64,000 bases of DNA from an uncultured Verrucomicrobiae bacterium (GTDB taxonomy: Bacteria > Verrucomicrobiota > Verrucomicrobiia > Limisphaerales > Palsa-1400). The stretch is from assembly GCA_963702845.1 (NCBI GenBank), contig OY969763.1, positions 4,704,001-4,768,000 of the forward strand, given 5' to 3'. Shown piece by piece: positions 10,429-20,046 of the stretch (within the stretch, counting starts at the first letter, position 1; each line of letters begins with the position of its first letter). Position numbers and translations under genes: made by a program. The notes under the pieces are model-generated. The model searched no databases and was not told where the DNA came from. It saw only the letters and a list, made by a program, of their open reading frames with translations.

Positions 10429-11742
10429 ATGCACCGCCTAATAGCTGCCCTCCTCCTGGCAATCGCCTTCGCGCCCAATGTCAGCGCCGCCGCCAAAAAA
10501 CCAAACATCCTCTTCATCTTGTGCGACGACATGGGCTACGAATGTCTGAACTGTTACGGCGGCACTTCCTACAAAACGCCGAACATCGACACCTTGGCCG
10601 CTTCGGGAATTCGCTTTCGCAACGCCTACGCCACTCCGCTCTGCTCGCCGTCGCGTGTTGAGTTGATGACGGGGCGATACGGTTTTCGCACCGGCTGGAT
10701 TAACCTGATCGGGCGCGGCGACGATGCGATGGAATATTTCGAACCGAATAAAGAACGCACCTTCGGCCACGTCTTGAAATCGGCGGGGTACGCCACCGCT
10801 CTCGCCGGTAAATGGCAGCTCTGCAACTTCACCGATCATCCCGATCACGTGAACAAATGCGGCTTCGACGAATACTGCTGTTGGACCTGGCAACTAAACG
10901 GGAAGCGAACCTCCCGTTATTGGGAGCCGTCCATTTGGCAGAATGGCAAAGAAAAGAAAGATCTTCAGGAGCCGTATGGCGAAGATATTTTTTGTAATTT
11001 CCTGATCGATTTCATGAAGCGTCATCGTGACGAACCGTTCTTTGCTTATTATCCGATGGTGCTCGTTCACGAGCCGCACACGGCCACGCCCGACAGCAAA
11101 GGTGCGACCAAAGCCCAAAAAAGCGGCAAAGCCGAGAAGGGCGGCGGCGTGGAAGGTAAGCGCCGACGTGCCACGAAGTTATTTCCCGGCATGGTGCAAT
11201 ACATGGACAAAACCGTCGGACGCCTCATGGCCGCATTGGATGAACTCGGCCTCCGCGACAATACAATTATCGTCTTCACCGGCGACAATGGCACAGATCG
11301 CAGTGTCTTTTCGAAAATTGGCGACGTCACCGTGCAAGGCGGTAAAGGAACGGTCGCTGAATTCGGCACCCACGTTCCTTTCATTGTGAGTTGGAGAGGC
11401 ACGATCAAACCGGCGCAGACCAAAGATGATTTGATCGACTTCAGCGACGTGCTCCCGACCATCGCCGAACTCGGCGGCGCGAAGCTACCCAACGCGACCA
11501 TCGACGGCAAAAGTTTCGCCCGCCAACTAACGACCGAAACCGCACCGGCCCGCCAATGGATTTTCAGTCAACTTGGTCATAAGAAACTCGCGCGCGACCA
11601 ACGTTTCATGCTGCACGACGACGGAAGCATCTACGACGTGATTCACGATCCGTTTGAAAAGAAAAACTTGGCGGACAGCAAAGACGCGGAGGTCACGACA
11701 TCAAAAGCGCGCCTGCAAAAAGTGCTGACGGACCTGCGCTGA
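10429..11742 (+). CDS. Sulfatase (formylglycine-dependent S1 family), secreted
   Basis: Signal peptide, KPNILFILCDD, CSPSR, GKWQ, GDNG motifs. Confidence 0.92.
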   Translation: MHRLIAALLLAIAFAPNVSAAAKKPNILFILCDDMGYECLNCYGGTSYKTPNIDTLAASGIRFRNAYATPLCSPSRVELMTGRYGFRTGWINLIGRGDDAMEYFEPNKERTFGHVLKSAGYATALAGKWQLCNFTDHPDHVNKCGFDEYCCWTWQLNGKRTSRYWEPSIWQNGKEKKDLQEPYGEDIFCNFLIDFMKRHRDEPFFAYYPMVLVHEPHTATPDSKGATKAQKSGKAEKGGGVEGKRRRATKLFPGMVQYMDKTVGRLMAALDELGLRDNTIIVFTGDNGTDRSVFSKIGDVTVQGGKGTVAEFGTHVPFIVSWRGTIKPAQTKDDLIDFSDVLPTIAELGGAKLPNATIDGKSFARQLTTETAPARQWIFSQLGHKKLARDQRFMLHDDGSIYDVIHDPFEKKNLADSKDAEVTTSKARLQKVLTDLR

Positions 11743-11803
11743 TTCGCGTGTGGTTCCGGCTTCAGCCGGCATCGTGCGTAACAGGAGATGATTGGAAAAG
11801 GAA

Positions 11804-12196
11804 TTACGGCTTAGCGGCGAGCGGTGCACGCAACGCCATCTTGATCGTCTGAATCAACGTCGACGGCGCGTAAGGTTTCTGCAGAAATTGAAATCCCTCT
11901 GGCAGCGGCAATCCTTTGCACGCTTCATCGTAGCTGTAGCCGGTTGTGAAAACCACTTTCAACTCTGGGTTTTCACCAATGAACTTGTCCGCCAGTTCGC
12001 GCCCGTTCATGCCATCCGGCAGCATCAAGTCGGTCAACAGCAAATCAATCTGTCCCTTCTTCTGAGCCCATTTCTCCAAAGCCATCGCACCCGACGACGC
12101 CTCCACCACCCGGCAGCCGAAACGTTCGAGAACCTTTCGGACCAGTAAGCGCAAAGACTGCTCGTCTTCGACAAGAAACACTGTCGGTGTGTGCAT
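11804..12196 (-). CDS. Single-domain response regulator receiver
   Basis: LVEDE, LLTDLMLP, TTGY, QKPY receiver motifs. Confidence 0.88.
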   Translation of the reverse strand: MHTPTVFLVEDEQSLRLLVRKVLERFGCRVVEASSGAMALEKWAQKKGQIDLLLTDLMLPDGMNGRELADKFIGENPELKVVFTTGYSYDEACKGLPLPEGFQFLQKPYAPSTLIQTIKMALRAPLAAKP

Positions 12197-12266
12197 AAAA
12201 ACGGGTTTAAGATAGCAGCGAACGTGCCATTCGCTTGACGGAGAACCGAAAACAAGACCTTGTCAA

Positions 12267-13472
12267 TCAACCACATCGCTCAATCACTGCCACGATTCCC
12301 TGCCCCACCCCAATGCACATCGCGCAAAGTGCGTAACGTGCGTTGGTCCGCTGCAGTTGCCAGGTCGCCGTCGTGATCAACCGCGCCCCGCTCATGCCGA
12401 GAGGATGTCCCAACGCAATCGCCCCGCCTTGCGGATTGATGCGAGGATCATTGTCAGCCAACCCAAGCTCCCGCATAGACGCCAACGCTTGCGAAGCAAA
12501 CGCTTCGTTGAACTCGAGAATATCCATTTGTTCCAGGGACATCTTCAAACGCGCCAAAAGTTTTCGCGTCGCCGGCACCGGCCCAATGCCCATGATGCGC
12601 GGGGAAACACCTGCAGCGGCAACACCCAACACGCGCGCTTTGGGCACGAGATTGAATTGCTTCACCGCCGACTCACTTCCAATCAGCAACCCCGCCGCAC
12701 CGTCATTAATTCCAGATGCGTTCCCAGCCGTGACCGTCCCATCCCGTCGCACGATAGGTTTCAGTTCTGCCAATTTTTCAAGCGTAGTCGCGCGCGGATG
12801 TTCATCACGTTTTACAACGATTGGTTCACCTTTGCGTTGCGGCAAACAAACCGAAATCAGTTCGGCATCGAACAATCCGTTCGCCTGCGCGGTGGCGGCT
12901 TTGGTCTGACTCCAAAAAGCAAACTTGTCCTGGTCTTCGCGACTGATCCCAAATTTCGCCACTAAATTCTCAGCCGTCTCCGCCATCGAATCCGTCCCGT
13001 AAAGCTCCTGCATTCGTTTGTTCACGAAATGCCAACCGAGCGTCGTGTCATAAATCTCAGCCTGTCGCGAAAACGCCTCCGTTGGTTTCGGCATCACATA
13101 AGGCGCGCGCGACATGCTTTCCACTCCGCCCGCAATCATCAAATCAGCTTCACCCGCTGCGATCGCCCGCGCCGCATAACCCACCGCATCCATCCCCGAA
13201 CCACACAACCGATTCACCGTGCAACCAGAAATTGATTCAGGAAGTCCGGACAACAACGCCGCCATTCGAGCCACGTTTCGGTTGTCCTCACCAGCTTGAT
13301 TCGCACATCCTAAAACCACGTCGTCCACCGCCGTCCAATCAACGCTCGGATTGCGCTCCATCAATGCCTTGATTGGCAATGCCGCCAGGTCATCGGCACG
13401 AATGCTCGACAACGCGCCGCCATAACGCCCAATCGGCGTCCGCACCGCATCGCAAATATAGGCTGCGTTCAT
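12267..13472 (-). CDS. pcaF: 3-oxoadipyl-CoA thiolase-like (PcaF/PaaJ subfamily)
   Basis: GCANQAGEDNRNVARM, NRLCGSG, NEAFA, GHPLG, CIGVGQG. Confidence 0.9.
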   Translation of the reverse strand: MNAAYICDAVRTPIGRYGGALSSIRADDLAALPIKALMERNPSVDWTAVDDVVLGCANQAGEDNRNVARMAALLSGLPESISGCTVNRLCGSGMDAVGYAARAIAAGEADLMIAGGVESMSRAPYVMPKPTEAFSRQAEIYDTTLGWHFVNKRMQELYGTDSMAETAENLVAKFGISREDQDKFAFWSQTKAATAQANGLFDAELISVCLPQRKGEPIVVKRDEHPRATTLEKLAELKPIVRRDGTVTAGNASGINDGAAGLLIGSESAVKQFNLVPKARVLGVAAAGVSPRIMGIGPVPATRKLLARLKMSLEQMDILEFNEAFASQALASMRELGLADNDPRINPQGGAIALGHPLGMSGARLITTATWQLQRTNARYALCAMCIGVGQGIVAVIERCG

Positions 13473-14815
13473 TTTGTCGTTGCCGTCGTCTTTACGTCGG
13501 GAAGTTTAGAATCCTTTACTTGTTTGAGCCCCGTCTTTAGCGCAACGCAAAGCTCATCGATTTCGGTCTCTGTCATCGGCGTCGACAGCGTCCCAGTGCC
13601 GGTCCACATGAGCATCACATTCTTGACGAAGAGATGATCCACTAGCGTATGCAAGCACTTCGCCTGTTCCGGCGTTGCATACGCTTCGCGATAATTGTTC
13701 GGCGGTTCAGTTTTGAAATGGATTCGGAACATCGAACCCGCTCCAGTGACGCACGCCGGAACGCCAGCTTCACAGATCGTTGCCGCAATTTGCGATCGCG
13801 CTTGGGCGCCAAGTTTGTTTAATCGTGCAACAGCCGGACGATCGAACGCATTCATAGCGGCGAGGCCTGCTACCATCGTGATGGGATTCGCCGAGAACGT
13901 GCCCGAGTGCGGGAACAAAACGCGTTCCAACAATGGATTGAATACATCCATCACATCCGCGCGGCCGGCGATGGCACCAACGGGAAAACCGCCGCCGATG
14001 ATCTTGCCCAGTGCGGTCAAATCCGGCTCCAAGCCATACCATTGCAGCGCGCCGCCGTATTCGCTACGAAACGTGATCACTTCGTCAAACACCAGCAACG
14101 CATCGTGCGTCGTCGTCCATTTGCGCAACGCATTCACAAAATCCTGCGTCGCCGGGATAACACCGACCCGGTGCGGCATAGGATCGATCAGCACGCACGC
14201 AAGGTCATCGGCGTGCTCATCGAGGAGCGCAAGTGCGGTTTCCGGATCGTTGAACGGAAGAACGACAACTTCATCCAATGCCGATTGCGGCGTCCCGTGT
14301 ACCACCGGCACGCTCCGTGGATGATTGGCATCACCCCAATTCGCGGGGTGCGCCGATTGGCTCGTCTCCGCATAGTCGTAGATGCCGTGATACGCGCCTT
14401 CGACCTTCGCGATCTTCGGACGGCCGGTAAATGCACGCGCCGCTTTCAAGCAACACATCACCGCCTCTGTCCCGGAATTAACAAATCGAATTTTCTCAAA
14501 CGCCGTCGAGCGTGAACACATGTATTCCGCCAACAAAATTTCCTCTTCCGTCGCATACGAATACGCGGTGCCGCGTTGCAATTGCTTTGTCACCGCCTCG
14601 ACGATCGCCGGATGCGAATGGCCATGGATCAGCGACGTCATGTTGTTCGCAAAATCGATGCGTGTGACGCCTTCAATATCGGTGAACCGACAGCCTTTGC
14701 CGTGACTGGTATAAATCGGATGCGGCTTGCTCAGCACGGCGTTCCGACTCACGCCGCCGGGCAAAACGCGAACGGCACGCTGATACAGTTGACTGCTCTT
14801 CGATGAGTGGCTCAC
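13469..14815 (-). CDS. Class III PLP aminotransferase, GSAM-fold, beta-amino-acid transaminase-like
   Basis: FVNSGTEA, FDEVIT, LGKIIGGGFPVG, SGTFSANP; PGGVSR instead of HemL PGGVNSPVR; no HemL AGSG gating loop. Confidence 0.85.
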   Translation of the reverse strand: MSHSSKSSQLYQRAVRVLPGGVSRNAVLSKPHPIYTSHGKGCRFTDIEGVTRIDFANNMTSLIHGHSHPAIVEAVTKQLQRGTAYSYATEEEILLAEYMCSRSTAFEKIRFVNSGTEAVMCCLKAARAFTGRPKIAKVEGAYHGIYDYAETSQSAHPANWGDANHPRSVPVVHGTPQSALDEVVVLPFNDPETALALLDEHADDLACVLIDPMPHRVGVIPATQDFVNALRKWTTTHDALLVFDEVITFRSEYGGALQWYGLEPDLTALGKIIGGGFPVGAIAGRADVMDVFNPLLERVLFPHSGTFSANPITMVAGLAAMNAFDRPAVARLNKLGAQARSQIAATICEAGVPACVTGAGSMFRIHFKTEPPNNYREAYATPEQAKCLHTLVDHLFVKNVMLMWTGTGTLSTPMTETEIDELCVALKTGLKQVKDSKLPDVKTTATTK

Positions 14816-15480
14816 GACTTCATCCTCGAAAGTAAATTGGTTCCAGTCCGCTTCTGCACCTGGTCGAAGTTCACACCAGGAGCAAGGTCGGCCACGATGA
14901 GACCTTCGGGTGTAACATCGATGACCGCAAGGTTCGTGTATATACGATCAACGACTGCTTTGCCAGTCAGCGGATACGTGCAGTGCTCAACGATTTTTGG
15001 CTCCCCGTTTTTGGTGGTGTGCTCGGTGATGACAAAAATTTTCTTAACGCCCCCGACCAGATCCATTGCGCCACCCACCGCTGGAATCGCAACCGGCTCA
15101 CCTGTTGACCAATTAGCCAAATCACCCGTTGCTGAAACCTGCATCGCGCCCAGCACGCAAATATCGATGTGCCCGCCACGAATCATCACGAAACTATCCG
15201 CATGATGAAAATAGGACGCCCCCGCAATCGCCGTCACCGCTTTTTTGCCGGCGTTGATCAACTCCGGGTCTTCGTTGCCCGGAATCGGAGCGGGTCCCAT
15301 CCCGAGCAATCCATTTTCTGTTTGAAAAATTACTTCGCGCCCGGCCGGGACGTATTGCGCAACCAATTCCGGAATTCCAATTCCAAGATTCACATACGCG
15401 CCGTCCTGAATGTCCGCAGCGACACGTTGCGCCATCTGCTCACGCGTCCACCCGTAAGTTGATTTTGCCACAGCGCTCAT
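14812..15480 (-). CDS. pcaJ: 3-oxoacid (3-oxoadipate-type) CoA-transferase subunit B
   Basis: VNLGIGIP, catalytic ENG (QTENGLLG), GGHID, GGAMDL. Confidence 0.85.
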   Translation of the reverse strand: MSAVAKSTYGWTREQMAQRVAADIQDGAYVNLGIGIPELVAQYVPAGREVIFQTENGLLGMGPAPIPGNEDPELINAGKKAVTAIAGASYFHHADSFVMIRGGHIDICVLGAMQVSATGDLANWSTGEPVAIPAVGGAMDLVGGVKKIFVITEHTTKNGEPKIVEHCTYPLTGKAVVDRIYTNLAVIDVTPEGLIVADLAPGVNFDQVQKRTGTNLLSRMKS

Positions 15481-16187
15481 GGATAACTCCTGTCTTCTCT
15501 TACCAATTGCGATTCCTGCGCCGGATTCGCAACCACAATGAGCCGGTTCACAAAAATACCGGGCGTCACAATGTCTTCCGGATCAAGTTCGCCCGCTTCC
15601 ACAATTTCTTTCACTTGCACGATTGCGATCTTCGCCGCCGTGCACATGATCGGCCCAAAATTCCGCGCCGTCTTGCTGTAGACAAGATTACCATGTCGGT
15701 CCGCCTTCTCCGCCTTGATCAGAGCAAAGTCGGCAATCAACCCGCGTTCCATCACGTATTCGCGCTCGCCGAACGTGCGCGATTCTTTTCCATTGGCGAG
15801 CACCGTCCCGACCGATGTCGCCGTGTAAAATGCCGGAATCCCAGCGCCTCCCGCACGAATGCGCTCAGCCAACGTCCCTTGTGGCACAAGCTCCAGCTGA
15901 ATCTCGCCTTTGCGATACAGCTCGGGAAACACCATCGAATTCGCGCTCCGCGGATACGAACAAATCATCTTCGCGACCTGTCGATTTGCAATCAACGCCG
16001 CCAAGCCAACGCGTCCGCTGCCGGTGTTGTTGCTTACGATCGTCAGATTCTTCGCCCCTCGATCCACTAGTGCATGGATCAACTCAATCGGACTGCCGGC
16101 CTCACCAAACCCGCTGATCATAATCGTCGCGCCATCGTGGATGTCCGCGACGGACGAAGCCAACGACGTTGCGCGTTTGTTAATCAT
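15477..16187 (-). CDS. pcaI: 3-oxoacid (3-oxoadipate-type) CoA-transferase subunit A
   Basis: MINK start, PQGTLAERIRAGGAGIPAFY, TARNFGP, TPGIFV. Confidence 0.85.
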   Translation of the reverse strand: MINKRATSLASSVADIHDGATIMISGFGEAGSPIELIHALVDRGAKNLTIVSNNTGSGRVGLAALIANRQVAKMICSYPRSANSMVFPELYRKGEIQLELVPQGTLAERIRAGGAGIPAFYTATSVGTVLANGKESRTFGEREYVMERGLIADFALIKAEKADRHGNLVYSKTARNFGPIMCTAAKIAIVQVKEIVEAGELDPEDIVTPGIFVNRLIVVANPAQESQLVREDRSYP

Positions 16188-17847
16188 CGCAAGCGCTCCT
16201 GGCAGGTCGCACGTCCTTCGCCGCGGTTGCAGATGCACGGCCTGCCTTTTGTTGTGCGACGTACTTTTCCTGCACGCGGCTCAACTTCTCTTCGATCTGA
16301 TGCAACTCGCCCTCAAAGAAAAACTCCTTCGTATCCAAAGGCACCAACTTATCGACGCGCGTCTCTGTCTCGTCGAACTTCGCGAGGAACACCTTGTCCA
16401 TCCAGGCCATGTTGCGGCTCTCATTGAACTTCAGCGCAAACGCTTTTTGCCCGTTCACCTCCGCCGTGCCCAGGATGGAAAGTTTCCCAGCCGACGTCGT
16501 CATGGTTATGTAACGTGACGGACGATGGAATGACGACAGCGACCGATAAATCAGGTTCGCGACCTTCTCGATGGACGCCAACGGCGCGGTAAAATAGTGA
16601 TATTCGCCCGTGTTGCGTGCGCAATACATCGAATGAAACCGGATGTTCAGCACCGCCAAAATATGCGCGAGATCAACCCAGTTTTGCGCCGAACGCTGCA
16701 CGTCTACCTTGCCGGCCTTGTCCGTATAAAGGCTGACGTGATTCATGATCGGGCTTTGGCTCCGAATGACCACGCCATAGTTCTGCAACCGGCGCATCGC
16801 AGCGAGCGTTGTTGGATTCAATAACTCACGCGGTGTCGAAATGTGAGCCACCCACGAAAGCTGCACGCCATTCTCATGCACCTTCTGGAACAACTTGAGA
16901 ACCTTTTCGTATTTGTTGCTCAAAATCAGTTCCGGTTGAAACGTCAAGGCGCGCGACGCGATACGGATCGTGCGAATGTGCAACAACCGCGGGTCCTCCA
17001 AAATCGGCAAAACATATTGCTCCAGCCGCTCGTATGGAATGTAAGCCGCATCACCGCCGGTGATCAGCAAGTCACTAACTTCCTTGTGCTCGCGCAGATA
17101 CTCGTGGATTTGCGCGATGTCCTCTTGGATGAACATGTCGTGATCACCGCGCACCTGTGCGTGACGGAAACAATACGTGCAAAACGCAAAACAAGTCTGC
17201 GTGCTTTGGTCGAAAACCAATTGCGTCTGCGGATATTTATGCTGACTACCTTCCAGCAACTCGATTCCGCCATTATCCCGTTCAATCCACGGCTTGTTGA
17301 GCAACTGATGCCCGTCGTGTGGATTGGTTTCCTCCATGTATTCGTCAATCACCCGCTTTCGATCCGCCTCGGTCTTCGCAAGCAGATACGCCTCCGTCAC
17401 CTTCTTACGCATCATCGTCGGTTGCGGGAAAACGAGCTGATACATCGGATCATGCTCGTAATCATTCCAATTAATTGTGTTCAGAATGTGCCGCGTCGCC
17501 TTGAACCGGTAAACTTCCACGAACAATTCGCGCTCCGTAATCCGGTCGAGCTTGACCCCATTCTTCGCCAGGATCGCCACCACTTCCCGGAACCCTTGCA
17601 ACTCCGAATACTGCGCGCGGTCATTGAACAAAAACGGGCGCGCTTCCAACAACCCAGAGTGCTGCGGATAAGCTACTTGCAACCGGCTCAGCACACCGTG
17701 CGGCAGAAGATTTTCCGTATCGATGATCGTGCGGACTTCATTCGAATACTCATAACGTTTGAGCATGCCAGCGCGTTGCTCCGCGCTCACCGTCGAACCA
17801 ATGGTCGCCCGGCCGCCCTTTTCGGGCTCAACAGTAGAATTTTTCAT
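16180..17847 (-). CDS. KamA-family radical SAM/PLP 2,3-aminomutase, substrate probably not lysine
   Basis: HKYP, CFAFCTYCFR (CxxxCxxC), LITGGD, QSPI, AGK (PLP-lysine position). Confidence 0.88.
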   Translation of the reverse strand: MKNSTVEPEKGGRATIGSTVSAEQRAGMLKRYEYSNEVRTIIDTENLLPHGVLSRLQVAYPQHSGLLEARPFLFNDRAQYSELQGFREVVAILAKNGVKLDRITERELFVEVYRFKATRHILNTINWNDYEHDPMYQLVFPQPTMMRKKVTEAYLLAKTEADRKRVIDEYMEETNPHDGHQLLNKPWIERDNGGIELLEGSQHKYPQTQLVFDQSTQTCFAFCTYCFRHAQVRGDHDMFIQEDIAQIHEYLREHKEVSDLLITGGDAAYIPYERLEQYVLPILEDPRLLHIRTIRIASRALTFQPELILSNKYEKVLKLFQKVHENGVQLSWVAHISTPRELLNPTTLAAMRRLQNYGVVIRSQSPIMNHVSLYTDKAGKVDVQRSAQNWVDLAHILAVLNIRFHSMYCARNTGEYHYFTAPLASIEKVANLIYRSLSSFHRPSRYITMTTSAGKLSILGTAEVNGQKAFALKFNESRNMAWMDKVFLAKFDETETRVDKLVPLDTKEFFFEGELHQIEEKLSRVQEKYVAQQKAGRASATAAKDVRPARSACDD

Positions 17848-18030
17848 TTGGATCGGTTATCTGATTGTTTAGCTACCTAATCAATCATCTGCACCGACCG
17901 CAGCTCGGGCTAACCCTTTATTGCCATTGCTTTGACATAAATTGTCCGCACCAAAAACCCAGGGCCAGTAGGCCAAGTAGCACCCAACCTTGACCACACA
18001 CTGCGCGCTGGATAGCGTCCACGAATTCCT

Positions 18031-20046
18031 ATGCTTTTACTCCGTGCTGCGGTCTCGCTGTTGATTCTTGGTTCGGCATTAGCGTCAGAGAGCGGCGCGT
18101 CGGCGGAAGTTGTGTTGGCGCGATCAAAGCACTCGACGTGGGTTATCGAACCGATTTCTACAAATGTCGCCGGCGTCACGTTTGCGACGGAGGAGTTGCA
18201 AAAATATTTACGGCAAATGGGTGGAGCAAAATTGGCGATCGTTTCAAAGGCCGCTCAACGCAAAGCGATTGTTATCGGGTTGCGTGCCGATTTTCCGACA
18301 GACGTTGAACACGTTTTGCCACCGCAAAAGCCCGGATACGATGGCTATGCAATTTCCATTCGAGACGACGGCATCGTGATCGCGGGCGACAACGGCCCGG
18401 GCTGCATTTACGGCGTCTACGACCTTCTTGAGCATCTCGGCTGCCGCTGGTTTTACCCCACCATCGATCCGAAGGACCCCGAAGTTGTTCCAAAATTTTC
18501 CACCGTCTCACTAAAAACAAATGCATGGGCAATCGCCTCGCCCATTCGCAACCGGATTTGCAACGGGGACGCGTGGTTTTTCGAAATGGATTATTCCGCA
18601 GCGCTCAAGGAAATGGATTGGGCGATGAAGAATCGGTACAACGCAATGGGCTGGCAGGCCGCCGTGAACACCAGCAAACGATCGTTGTTGCAACAATACA
18701 ACGATCTTGGCCGGGCCGGAATCACCAGCGGAATCGAAAAGCGCGGCATGTTCATTCATGGCCCGGCACATTCGTTCGATCATTTTTTGAAATCGGACAT
18801 TTACTTCGCGAAGCACCCCGAATGGTTCGGCATGCGTAACGGAAAACGCGTTCCGCAGGCAGCGCTCGGAGCCCAGTTTTGCTGGTCCAATCCCGAAGCG
18901 CGCGCCCAGTTTATTGCCAACGCGGAGGCGTTCATCACCAATGCGCCCGACATCAAAATTTTTTGCACGGTCCCGTTTGATGGCGGTGTGGCGTGCGATT
19001 GCCCGGAGTGCCGCAAGCAAGGACCGAGCAATTTGTTGATGGTGTTGATGAAGGAATTGATCGAGCGGTTGCAGCGGTCGCGACCAGATGTGCAGGTCGA
19101 AACCGTCGGCGGCTACGGAGCAGTGCCGAACCCGCCGTCAAACCTCGCGATCATTCATCCGAAACAGCGGATCGTCTGGGCTCAGTGGGGCCGCCACCAC
19201 GGTATCGGCTACGACGATGCGAAATACGAGCGGCACAACCTGGACCTTTGGCGCGTTGCAGCAAAAGGCGGGCTGACGATTTGCCAATATTACACCGACA
19301 ACTTCGCCGAACCGTGGGTGATGGGTCCTTTCACCACGGCAATGCAAAGTGACCGGCGCTATTTTCTGAAGCACAAGGTCGACGCGGTTTATATGTTGAT
19401 GTATTCGCCCGGATACTGGTGGAACCACAGTTTGAACGGTTACATCGCAGGGCACTGCTTTTACGATGCCAGTCTTTCTCCGCGGGACGCGATTTCCGAT
19501 TACGCCCTGCATTATTTTGGAACGAACGCGGGACCGGCTTTGGCCAAATATTACGGAGAATGGGCGGACAACATTGAGTTGAGTTATCGCCTACGTGGTG
19601 AAGCGCGGAAACAGGACAGAATAACACTGGCACGAGAGCGCCAGGATCTGATTGCGCCAGCCGTTGCTGCGGCGAGAACTTCAGTCGAACGCTATCGCGT
19701 GGCAAAAGTAGAAATGTTGCATGGTCTGGCCGAGCAGTTGTACGAGTTGCATCGGCAGCACGATTTGGTGAGGTGGTTACGGATGCAGGGAAAATTTGAT
19801 GACGCTACACGGATGCTGACGAAATCCCGCACGACTGCGGATGAGACGTTGAAGCTATTCCTCAAAATCGCCAACACGAAGGAGGGCTTGATCGACGCCA
19901 ATGAGGTGCGCGGATTCATCACGCTGGCGATGAAAAATTGGATTGAGGAAGAGGCAAAAGCGATTGCCGCAAAAGACCGCACGCGCCCGGCATGGTTGGA
20001 CCGCGATCTTGCGGAAACCGAAGTTAAGCCCGGTGAACCGTTTTAA
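18031..20046 (+). CDS. Secreted DUF4838-like protein (GH67/GH20 N-terminal-like domain plus putative catalytic domain)
   Basis: Signal peptide; ELQKYL..GCIYGVYDLLEHLGCRW; HPEWF, QFCWSNP, CDCPEC pattern. Confidence 0.65.
   Translation: MLLLRAAVSLLILGSALASESGASAEVVLARSKHSTWVIEPISTNVAGVTFATEELQKYLRQMGGAKLAIVSKAAQRKAIVIGLRADFPTDVEHVLPPQKPGYDGYAISIRDDGIVIAGDNGPGCIYGVYDLLEHLGCRWFYPTIDPKDPEVVPKFSTVSLKTNAWAIASPIRNRICNGDAWFFEMDYSAALKEMDWAMKNRYNAMGWQAAVNTSKRSLLQQYNDLGRAGITSGIEKRGMFIHGPAHSFDHFLKSDIYFAKHPEWFGMRNGKRVPQAALGAQFCWSNPEARAQFIANAEAFITNAPDIKIFCTVPFDGGVACDCPECRKQGPSNLLMVLMKELIERLQRSRPDVQVETVGGYGAVPNPPSNLAIIHPKQRIVWAQWGRHHGIGYDDAKYERHNLDLWRVAAKGGLTICQYYTDNFAEPWVMGPFTTAMQSDRRYFLKHKVDAVYMLMYSPGYWWNHSLNGYIAGHCFYDASLSPRDAISDYALHYFGTNAGPALAKYYGEWADNIELSYRLRGEARKQDRITLARERQDLIAPAVAAARTSVERYRVAKVEMLHGLAEQLYELHRQHDLVRWLRMQGKFDDATRMLTKSRTTADETLKLFLKIANTKEGLIDANEVRGFITLAMKNWIEEEAKAIAAKDRTRPAWLDRDLAETEVKPGEPF

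Follow-up and report, generated by a model that had tools for sequence, protein, structure and literature searches.

The five minus-strand genes at positions 12267–17847 of the window, the 64,000-nucleotide stretch of DNA analyzed here, are best read as a single operon for the catabolism of L-2-aminoadipate, an interpretation to which we assign a probability of about 0.65. They encode, in order, a KamA-like radical-SAM enzyme, the PcaI and PcaJ subunits of a CoA-transferase, a class-III transaminase and a PcaF-type thiolase, and as judged from sequence would together carry lysine through 2-aminoadipate, 3-aminoadipate, 3-oxoadipate and 3-oxoadipyl-CoA to succinyl-CoA and acetyl-CoA. Catabolism by this operon would be oxygen-independent and redox-neutral, with 2-aminoadipate, an amino acceptor and CoA yielding succinate, acetyl-CoA and an amino acid. 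The sequence-only reading had proposed the segment from 2-aminoadipate to succinyl-CoA plus acetyl-CoA, and that proposal is supported by conserved synteny across phyla, by an arginine in place of a lysine-binding aspartate in the radical-SAM active site, by repeated linkage to 2-aminoadipate-producing enzymes, and by the presence in the same genome of a gene pair for lysine 6-transaminase and piperideine-6-carboxylate dehydrogenase. Our literature search found no description of such a 2-aminoadipate route.

The open reading frames lie at 16180–17847 (555 residues), 15477–16238, 14812–15480, 13469–14815 and 12267–13472, all on the minus strand, and overlap at four of four junctions, in agreement with the layout that the sequence-only reading had described. 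By their coordinates, three overlaps span 4 nt (ATGA at 15477–15480, GTGA at 14812–14815 and ATGA at 13469–13472). The fourth is ATGATTAA at 16187–16180, where the ATG of pcaI begins at 16187 and the TAA of the radical-SAM gene ends at 16180; an AGGAG lies upstream of this ATG, at 16200–16196. The pcaI frame is open back to a GTG at 16238, and because the NCBIfam PcaI profile begins at residue 18 of that longer frame, translation probably starts at ATG 16187, and the previously claimed 8-nt overlap stands. The intergenic region between the operon and a divergent DUF4838 gene (17848–18030) is presumed to contain the promoter; a consensus scan of it returned no sigma-70-like site. Within about 8 kb, profile annotation shows flanks unrelated to lysine, encoding a receiver-domain protein, a sulfatase, a cytochrome b/c fusion, the DUF4838 glycosidase-like protein and a GH25 protein. 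Ring-cleavage and lysine-fermentation genes (kamDE, kdd and kce), earlier remarked to be missing nearby, are indeed not among the genes annotated in that range.

The cassette recurs well beyond the window. We compared 91 related loci and assessed the full cassette in those where 4100 nt or more of sequence follow the radical-SAM gene: all five genes are present in the same order and on the same strand in 46 of these 46, and for 90 of the 91 the gene order agrees over all the DNA available. The named genome loci derive from Verrucomicrobiota, Phycisphaerae, Lentimicrobiaceae, Rikenellaceae and Sumerlaeota MAGs, and their cassette flanks are mutually unrelated. Among 201 sampled genomes of the window's phylum, the ortholog was found in one, the window's own. 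With this conserved order, these unrelated flanks and this sparse distribution, the five-gene block behaves as a self-contained module. The sequence-only reading had proposed, as a test, co-occurrence of this KamA-like clade with pcaIJF and the aminotransferase across genomes, and its interpretation passes it.

The first gene (16180–17847, minus strand) encodes P0001, a divergent KamA-family radical-SAM/PLP enzyme that we propose as a 2-aminoadipate 2,3-aminomutase. Its match to the KamA model TIGR00238, a family that includes lysine 2,3-aminomutase (LAM), EpmB, and the glutamate and arginine 2,3-aminomutases, is weak (69.5 bits against a cut-off of 199.2). The protein falls below every curated KamA-family cut-off and, by sequence, is placed outside all characterized subfamilies. 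Given these scores and an identity of about 20% to canonical KamA, we infer even its reaction type. The only PDB sequence match is 2A5H, the LAM of Clostridium subterminale, which was also the top Foldseek match (E = 4e-16, the next being 3e-5) to an AF2 model with a pLDDT of 90.2, making lysine 2,3-aminomutase the nearest fold to the modelled structure. C219, C223 and C226, R228, the GGD at 264–266 and K455 are invariant. The enzyme has in common with LAM the GGD, the Fe-S cysteines in their CxxxCxxC arrangement, the carboxylate Arg two positions beyond the last of these cysteines, and the PLP Lys; R228 and K455 correspond to LAM Arg134 and Lys337. Relative to both its paralogs and canonical KamA, it is longer at the N-terminus by about 90 residues and carries an insertion at approximately 372–388. 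LAM carries a Zn site, whereas the C-terminal part of the operon enzyme has no Cys cluster, and the genomic partners of its gene are unlike those of LAM/KamA.

The two enzymes also diverge at the lysine-binding positions, where Asp293 and Asp330 of LAM are replaced by R411 and T448. The R411/Asp293 correspondence emerged both from the HMMER profile alignment to 2A5H and from a MAFFT alignment with the canonical KamA paralog of the same genome, which retains both lysine-binding Asp; T448 aligns with Asp330. A basic residue at the Asp293 site has a parallel in glutamate 2,3-aminomutase (reportedly Lys/Asn). Arg411 would bind the distal carboxylate of 2-aminoadipate while the enzyme, using a 4Fe-4S cluster, SAM and PLP, would transfer the C2 amino group to C3, giving 3-aminoadipate. 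As R411 is near-invariant also in the wider family of non-cassette paralogs, it may not be specific for aminoadipate.

The next step would fall to the product of the fourth gene (13469–14815, minus strand), a class-III aminotransferase of the GSAM fold (PF00202). This protein is hemL-like yet scores under the hemL equivalog cut-off (341.4 against 527.3 bits), which rules out GSAM itself. The best PDB matches are 6K8H (408 bits) and ForI 6SSD (379 bits), with GSAM at about 238 bits. StoTA of Sphaerobacter thermophilus (6K8H), MesAT (2YKU), VpAT (4AO9) and ForI are beta-amino-acid transaminases of the GSAM-like class-III subgroup, and have been studied either with aromatic and aliphatic beta-amino acids or as part of a nucleoside-antibiotic pathway. 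The 6K8H enzyme is a characterized beta/gamma-amino-acid transaminase (PMC10589169). The operon enzyme aligns with it end to end, and R24 and K271 match, by hand count, its R36 and K282, so that the PLP Lys and the proposed carboxylate Arg are retained. Acting on a beta-amino acid, as its family does, it would convert 3-aminoadipate to 3-oxoadipate, although a beta-amino dicarboxylate, as proposed here, differs from 6K8H-type substrates.

The transferase genes sit between those for the aminomutase and the transaminase, an order that would also fit a scheme in which the transferase first makes 3-aminoadipyl-CoA and the transaminase converts this ester to 3-oxoadipyl-CoA for the thiolase. A free beta-keto acid would thereby be avoided, and precedent for an acyl-CoA beta-transaminase reportedly exists; Kat is a 3-aminobutyryl-CoA transaminase. 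We nonetheless regard this sequence of steps as unlikely: the closest solved relatives of the transaminase use free beta-amino acids, and the proposed carboxylate Arg (R24) is kept; the PcaI/ScoA-type family is defined on 3-oxoacids; and 3-oxoadipate is an ordinary free intermediate of the beta-ketoadipate pathway.

With transamination preceding CoA transfer, the PcaIJ-type transferase would convert 3-oxoadipate and succinyl-CoA to 3-oxoadipyl-CoA and succinate. Both 3-oxoacid CoA-transferase subunits exceed curated cut-offs: subunit A (PcaI/ScoA type; 15477–16187, minus strand) scores 342.9 bits with TIGR02429 (cut-off 128.5), and subunit B (PcaJ/ScoB type; 14812–15480, minus strand) scores 308.1 bits with TIGR02428 (cut-off 243.55) and contains TENG, in which the ENG motif presumably bears the catalytic Glu. 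The last gene (12267–13472, minus strand) encodes a 3-oxoadipyl-CoA thiolase of the PcaF/PaaJ type that passes both the PcaF equivalog TIGR02430 (681.9 bits, cut-off 597) and NF006551 (704.6 bits, cut-off 605), has 6PCA, a beta-ketoadipyl-CoA thiolase, as its best PDB match (545 bits), and contains Cys, His and Cys stretches at what we take to be the motif positions. On this equivalog-level assignment it would cleave 3-oxoadipyl-CoA to succinyl-CoA and acetyl-CoA. The transferase and thiolase are in these respects those of the beta-ketoadipate pathway, but that pathway is fed from catechol or protocatechuate, whereas the proposed route would be entered from an amino acid through the aminomutase and transaminase. 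Because PcaIJ/ScoAB transferases and PcaF-like thiolases can take other 3-oxoacids, the family names leave the chain unfixed.

One such chain, put forward as an alternative by the sequence-only reading, would run from glutamate through beta-glutamate to 3-oxoglutarate, followed by decarboxylation to acetoacetate or formation of a CoA ester, and thiolysis. ScoAB-type transferases use acetoacetate, and the closest PDB match of subunit A is ScoA (3CDK); moreover, the residue at the LAM Asp293 site is basic, as in glutamate 2,3-aminomutase. However, the glutamate 2,3-aminomutase model gives the radical-SAM protein 52.7 bits against 650, the PcaF-grade thiolase is far under the cut-offs of acetoacetyl-CoA thiolase models, recurrent cassette neighbors make 2-aminoadipate and not glutamate derivatives, and the annotated flanks hold no glutamate-specific neighbor. 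Weakened by thiolase grade and neighbors, glutamate is retained as a rival substrate that we consider very unlikely.

Those recurrent neighbors point to 2-aminoadipate. In six related loci the cassette adjoins genes making 2-aminoadipate or its semialdehyde, the linked types being piperideine-6-carboxylate dehydrogenase, lysine 6-transaminase, a pipecolate-oxidase-like gene and split saccharopine-pathway enzymes. The dehydrogenase lies by the cassette in L037 (two copies), L070 and L080 (NF050084, 793–812 bits, cut-off 730), with a partial copy in L040, and tblastn with the own-genome protein located it in L005 and L032 too. In L005, it and lysine 6-transaminase are divergently adjacent to the cassette; L070 carries an AmaA-like pipecolate oxidase and an ABC transporter alongside it; and in L080 it directly follows the thiolase gene and is itself followed by a saccharopine dehydrogenase homolog. 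Saccharopine dehydrogenase and lysine-ketoglutarate reductase homologs lie directly upstream on the same strand in L052. This linkage is confined to a minority of loci: of 59 non-redundant locus groups whose flanks extend for 2 kb or more, 4 contain the dehydrogenase, and two further lysine-linked cases are L040, where the flank is short, and L052.

The absence of informative neighbors at most loci, an aminomutase in no characterized subfamily and the wide substrate range of the closest transaminase relative would suit the same four reaction types acting on lysine (through beta-lysine), leucine (beta-leucine), 2-aminobutyrate, methionine or 2-aminopimelate. Such substrates are decidedly unlikely, as both lysine-binding Asp are gone from the radical-SAM enzyme while a separate canonical KamA with both is present in the genome, the thiolase is PcaF-grade, and the linked enzymes strip the epsilon-amino group of lysine before the cassette would act. 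The neighbors also bear on direction. The four reaction types are reversible in principle, and reverse adipate pathways employ relatives of the PcaF-type thiolase (PMC8706239), which would favor synthesis from succinyl-CoA and acetyl-CoA via 3-oxoadipate to 3-aminoadipate and possibly 2-aminoadipate. Against this, the linked piperideine-6-carboxylate dehydrogenase is an aldehyde dehydrogenase yielding 2-aminoadipate, NRPS, ligase and export genes are not among the annotated neighbors, and the LysR and XRE-cupin regulators that are present among neighbors of related loci would be typical of catabolic operons. The biosynthetic direction is most improbable, and equally so the purposes it might serve, production of a beta-amino diacid or supply of 2-aminoadipate.

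For catabolism, 2-aminoadipate would arise from lysine via aminoadipate semialdehyde/piperideine-6-carboxylate. The window's own genome could supply it through an unlinked lysine 6-transaminase (573.7 bits, cut-off 520.8) and piperideine-6-carboxylate dehydrogenase (815.5 bits, cut-off 730), encoded about 1.6 kb apart on one strand elsewhere in the genome. In one set of five cassette genomes the dehydrogenase is above cut-off in all five; in a second set of five it is partial in one and was not found in four, one of which has lysine 6-transaminase above cut-off and another a saccharopine dehydrogenase homolog. In the phylum sample, which is phylogenetically non-independent, 6 of the 200 other genomes have the dehydrogenase above cut-off. 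Two cassette MAGs of unknown completeness (G206 and G209) yielded none of the queried lysine genes. Active site, gene linkage and own-genome genes thus each lend support to 2-aminoadipate as the predicted substrate.

Clostridial lysine fermentation (KamA, KamDE, Kdd, Kce, Kal/Kat) is likewise anaerobe-compatible, starting with a radical-SAM 2,3-aminomutase and ending with CoA-transferase and thiolase-type steps. In contrast to that route, the operon aminomutase would act on 2-aminoadipate, with the epsilon-amino group already oxidized away, the clostridial kamDE, kdd and kce are not near the cassette, and the products would be succinate and acetyl-CoA instead of butyrate and acetate. Aerobic routes share the upstream portion, in which lysine 6-transaminase, the saccharopine route or the pipecolate route is followed by piperideine-6-carboxylate dehydrogenase, and then proceed by 2-aminoadipate transaminase to 2-oxoadipate and on through HglS or glutaryl-CoA; profile searches of the window's own genome gave no match to HglS, and the best 2-aminoadipate transaminase score, 238.7, lies below the cut-off of 650. 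Unlike these aerobic 2-aminoadipate routes, the proposed operon route would need neither O2 nor oxidative decarboxylation.

The cassette consists of five minus-strand genes, and every open reading frame was confirmed: the radical-SAM gene, encoding the 555-aa protein P0001 (16180-17847), CoA-transferase A (ORF 15477-16238), CoA-transferase B (14812-15480), a class-III transaminase (13469-14815) and a thiolase (12267-13472). According to these coordinates, start/stop overlaps of 4 nt are present at three of the junctions. For CoA-transferase A, the sequence ATGATTAA at 16187-16180, an AGGAG at 16200-16196 and a match to the PcaI profile from residue 18 of the full-length ORF onward make the ATG at 16187 the most likely start, and hence an 8-nt overlap with the radical-SAM stop codon. 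Five minus-strand genes with overlapping junctions, this 8-nt overlap among them, had been proposed from a sequence-only reading of the window, and coordinates and sequence agree with that description. A consensus scan of 11600-18200 returned one promoter-like and seven terminator-like sites, not above shuffled sequence. The nearest other genes encode a single-domain response regulator, a sulfatase, a fused cytochrome b/c protein, a GH25 protein and a DUF4838 glycosidase-like protein, the last transcribed divergently from the operon. The response-regulator receiver gene (11804-12196, minus strand) lies on the same strand and starts 70 nt past the thiolase stop; it is probably not a cassette member, since none of the related loci showed such a gene after the thiolase. 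The same reading had noted an absence of ring-cleavage and lysine-fermentation genes nearby, and this holds for the 11 proteins scanned within ~8 kb of the cassette, among which there were no aromatic-catabolism or lysine-fermentation genes; pcaGH/B/C/D or cat genes were likewise missing both from these proteins and from the annotated flanks of related loci.

Conserved synteny across genomes had been named as a check to make on the operon, and the cassette proved to be a strongly conserved block. A one-genome-per-species scan yielded 11 loci, from seven Verrucomicrobiota-type MAGs and one MAG each of Phycisphaerae, Lentimicrobiaceae, Rikenellaceae and Sumerlaeota, and the best 80 of 367 relatives from a metagenome scan were kept; the five window proteins were then compared by tblastn with all 91 loci, which form 81 groups at at least 95% nucleotide identity of the radical-SAM gene. 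Wherever 4100 nt or more of DNA follows the radical-SAM gene (46 loci), all five genes occur in the same order and on the same strand, and in 90 of 91 loci gene order agrees to the end of the available DNA. The exception (L041:3965-8283) carries, in this order, a transaminase, a radical-SAM ortholog (60% identity), a FabG-like SDR and a GGACT/AIG2-like gene and lacks the CoA-transferase and thiolase genes; the aminomutase-transaminase pair may feed other downstream chemistry as well. Flanks vary from locus to locus: no shared neighbour was present in the nine named genome loci with upstream DNA, and the recurrent regulator neighbours are XRE-HTH plus cupin genes in 7 loci and LysR genes in 7 plus 3 loci. 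An ortholog was found in 1 of 201 genomes sampled from the window's phylum, that one being the window's own (two others gave paralog-level matches), an incidence too low for co-occurrence to be profiled within the phylum. Given the differing flanks and this scarcity, the cassette is a module complete in itself whose distribution is patchy.

The downstream enzymes fall into known families above curated cut-offs. CoA-transferase A scores 342.9 bits against TIGR02429 (cut-off 128.5) and CoA-transferase B 308.1 bits against TIGR02428 (cut-off 243.55), both above threshold in families (pcaI/scoA and pcaJ/scoB) that do not tell PcaIJ from ScoAB. The translation of CoA-transferase B contains TENG, within which the ENG motif is presumably the site of the catalytic Glu of this subunit. 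The thiolase passes both the PcaF equivalog TIGR02430 (681.9 bits, cut-off 597) and NF006551 (704.6 bits, cut-off 605), and its best solved relative is the beta-ketoadipyl-CoA thiolase 6PCA (545 bits). Its translation contains NRLCGSG, GHPLG and CIGVGQG, stretches that we take to hold the catalytic Cys, His and Cys residues, respectively.

The transaminase was considered as HemL (glutamate-1-semialdehyde 2,1-aminomutase), an assignment rejected because it falls below the cut-off of the HemL equivalog TIGR00713 (341.4 bits, cut-off 527.3) and beta-transaminases score higher. Its best PDB matches are 6K8H (408 bits) and ForI (379), well ahead of GSAM entries at ~238 or less; the beta-transaminases 2YKU and 4AO9 score 233 and 223. 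In excerpts of PMC10589169, 6K8H is described as a Sphaerobacter thermophilus omega-transaminase active on beta- and gamma-amino acids, an Arg of which is proposed to bind the substrate carboxylate. K271 of the cassette transaminase aligns with K282 of 6K8H, the PLP lysine, and R24 with R36 (alignment positions counted by hand). These similarities suggest that the enzyme belongs with the beta-amino-acid transaminases of the GSAM-like subgroup, with 3-aminoadipate as its predicted substrate. A rival order of events would place CoA transfer first and transamination at the level of the CoA ester; the order we favour, in which the free beta-amino acid would be transaminated before CoA transfer, is one that relatives active on beta-amino acids would permit.

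P0001 falls short of TIGR00238 for the KamA family (69.5 bits, cut-off 199.2) and lies far under the cut-offs of all KamA equivalogs, including TIGR03820 for lysine 2,3-aminomutase (LAM) proper, EC 5.4.3.2 (69.6 bits, cut-off 525.4), and TIGR04368 for glutamate 2,3-aminomutase (52.7 bits, cut-off 650), and 24 of 24 relatives scanned are likewise sub-threshold KamA proteins. The sole PDB sequence match of P0001 is the LAM structure 2A5H, and a Foldseek search with an AlphaFold2 model (29 sequences; pLDDT 90.2, pTM 0.89) also returned 2A5H first (E 4.4e-16, target TM 0.66), eleven orders of magnitude better than other radical-SAM folds (next entry 3.2e-5). By sequence, P0001 is a distant KamA relative only. 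Searched exhaustively with HMMER, 1.84 billion representatives yielded 1451 matches at E<=1e-3, among them just two that are closely related over their full length (61% and 39% identity); the others, proteins of 400-530 aa that are 27-37% identical, make up a wider family, and a protein atlas search returned unnamed or KamA-like clusters only. Cassette orthologs have in common an N-terminal extension of ~90 residues, helical and confidently modelled (residues ~20-110 of P0001; 17520-17790, minus strand), and an insertion of roughly 9-17 residues (near residues 372-388; 16684-16734, minus strand). Both are absent from paralogs and canonical KamA and could serve as a substrate lid or oligomer interface. 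One wider-family paralog, P0032 (882 aa), has an N-terminal flavin N-monooxygenase-like domain (259 bits to a histamine N-monooxygenase model, below cut-off), a fusion that suggests that some wider-family paralogs work in natural-product pathways.

Residues expected of a radical-SAM/PLP aminomutase are retained in P0001. C219, C223 and C226 of the CxxxCxxC motif, R228, G264-G265-D266 and K455 do not vary in any of three alignments (29, 12 and 15 sequences), and both the 4Fe-4S/SAM motif and the SAM-binding GGD motif are thereby kept. In LAM, we take Lys337 to be the PLP-binding lysine, Arg134 the alpha-carboxylate Arg, and Asp293 and Asp330 the residues that bind the epsilon-ammonium of lysine. 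R228 of P0001 sits two residues past the third Cys, and K455 aligns (MAFFT) with the PLP Lys, the K of GGGGK, of a canonical KamA encoded elsewhere in the same genome. That canonical gene (L107:1339-2574, ~5.373 Mb) encodes 411 aa, scores 332 bits to TIGR00238 and retains both lysine-binding Asp, in QCD and VIDAPGGGGK; P0001 is thus one of at least two KamA-like proteins that the genome encodes. A profile alignment to 2A5H places LAM Asp293 opposite Arg411 of P0001, and in the MAFFT alignment the two Asp of the canonical KamA fall on Arg411 and Thr448. P0001 as a canonical LAM was rejected on the loss of both Asp together with the presence of this canonical paralog.

In glutamate 2,3-aminomutase, Lys and Asn replace the two Asp of LAM. 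With both acidic residues lost and an Arg gained, the site of P0001 is in keeping with a substrate that bears a distal carboxylate, not with lysine. Arg411 is near-invariant in non-cassette paralogs too and so points to an acidic substrate class, not to a C6 chain specifically. Glutamate and other amino acids are less probable rival substrates; 2-aminoadipate is the one we favour, and genes that form it are found beside the cassette in some related loci.

The sole recurrent metabolic neighbour in annotated flanks is an aldehyde dehydrogenase. L-piperideine-6-carboxylate dehydrogenase (hereafter the dehydrogenase) exceeds the NCBIfam equivalog cut-off (793-812 bits vs 730) in L037 (two copies), L070 and L080, occurs as a partial copy at the contig end in L040, and was also detected in L005 and L032 by tblastn with the own-genome enzyme; a sixth dehydrogenase, that of L074, is of another type and was left out of the count. 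In L005, a lysine 6-transaminase homolog and the dehydrogenase sit directly upstream of the cassette and are read from the other strand, and L070 has a LysR gene, an AmaA-like pipecolate oxidase (458 bits, below the cut-off of 600), the dehydrogenase and Liv-type ABC transporter genes. L052 carries, on the same strand immediately upstream, homologs of glutamate-forming saccharopine dehydrogenase (314 bits to 1E5L, 270 to the human AASS SDH domain) and lysine-ketoglutarate reductase (265 bits to the human AASS LKR domain). Directly past the thiolase of L080 are the dehydrogenase and then a saccharopine dehydrogenase homolog, followed by two ORFs without an NCBIfam or PDB match. Three distinct upstream modules, of the transaminase, pipecolate and saccharopine routes, are thus joined to one cassette, and all converge on aminoadipate semialdehyde and 2-aminoadipate. 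Lysine linkage is a minority arrangement: of 59 non-redundant groups for which 2 kb or more of flank is available, 4 have the dehydrogenase, and L040 and L052 add two. In the flanks, annotation extended to recurrent clusters and to 79 ORFs no more than 1.2 kb away, together with tblastn searches for five queries.

Other neighbours were seen in single or paired loci. Directly past the cassette in L056 (L056:15748-19127) are a gene of the isocitrate/homoisocitrate-dehydrogenase family and a fusion of HMG-CoA-lyase-like and CaiB-type CoA-transferase domains. Both score below cut-offs (the former below all of them) and are ambiguous, and they were set aside as substrate evidence; a tie to C6/C5 diacid metabolism is possible. 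An aspartokinase gene, best matching the lysine-sensitive type below cut-off, adjoins the cassette on the opposite strand at L028:7851-9203 and L035:1347-2699. In the Rikenellaceae MAG (L009:7472-9779), a sodium:solute symporter and a carbon-nitrogen hydrolase, the latter a PRK10438-type amidohydrolase above cut-off, lie directly upstream on the same strand and could act in precursor uptake and deacylation.

In whole-genome searches, all five cassette genomes of one set have the dehydrogenase above cut-off; in the five of a second set it is partial at a contig end in one and was not detected at E<=1e-150 in four. Of 200 other genomes in the phylum sample, 6 carry it above cut-off, as does 1 of 14 control genomes, ratios that are indicative only because related genomes are not independent. 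Among cassette genomes without it, G208 has a lysine 6-transaminase above cut-off and G207 a saccharopine dehydrogenase homolog (47% identity), and none of the three genes was recovered from G206 or G209, which are MAGs of unstated completeness. The window's genome, a single contig of 6.03 Mb, encodes the dehydrogenase (815.5 bits) and lysine 6-transaminase (573.7 bits, cut-off 520.8) ~1.6 kb apart on one strand and 2.7 Mb from the cassette, and should therefore be able to make 2-aminoadipate from lysine. A search of sequencing runs gave soil DNA data sets with small shares and no RNA data set. One gene of the Pup-ligase family and one proteasomal-ATPase-like AAA gene lie directly beside this lysine 6-transaminase (L100:14693-18071, ~2.022-2.025 Mb) and constitute a pupylation-type system in an apparent Verrucomicrobiota genome. 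HglS has no match in the genome and no 2-aminoadipate transaminase reaches cut-off (best 238.7 vs 650), so that the search for these two enzymes turned up no recognised means of 2-aminoadipate disposal besides the cassette. The same five genes could, with much lower probability, be read in the biosynthetic direction; a genome equipped to form 2-aminoadipate from lysine is consistent with the catabolic direction that we infer.

We assign a probability of roughly 0.65 to a route in which lysine would be converted to 2-aminoadipate, through unlinked genes in the window's genome, and the cassette would complete its breakdown. P0001 would catalyse a radical-SAM/PLP 2,3-shift of 2-aminoadipate to 3-aminoadipate, transamination would give 3-oxoadipate, CoA moved from succinyl-CoA would give 3-oxoadipyl-CoA, and thiolysis would release succinyl-CoA and acetyl-CoA. 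Full-text literature searches, with subscription journals and patents outside their scope, found no description of this route: 'beta-aminoadipic' in PMC9854754 stands only within the title of a cited reference, where it names what lysine 6-aminotransferase produces, and excerpts of PMC8706239 concern synthetic adipate routes only. The enzyme families and reaction types are already known; what would be new is the pathway that combines them and the predicted specificity of the aminomutase.

With slightly better than even confidence, we regard the cassette as the signature operon of a branch of lysine catabolism that is undescribed, widespread and independent of oxygen, in which P0001 would be the first 2-aminoadipate 2,3-aminomutase, 3-aminoadipate a natural metabolite, and the end enzymes of the beta-ketoadipate pathway would serve amino-acid rather than aromatic breakdown; the paralogs that share Arg411 may make up a large group of acidic-amino-acid 2,3-aminomutases that is still uncharted. 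If true, this would add an activity to the radical-SAM aminomutases, correct the routine labels 'lysine 2,3-aminomutase', 'glutamate-1-semialdehyde aminomutase' and 'aromatic-degradation pcaIJF', and supply enzymes for producing or breaking down beta-amino dicarboxylic acids and C6 diacids. It would also provide a new redox-neutral exit from lysine catabolism without oxidative decarboxylation or O2, and would explain 2-aminoadipate disposal in anaerobes and microaerophiles of many phyla.
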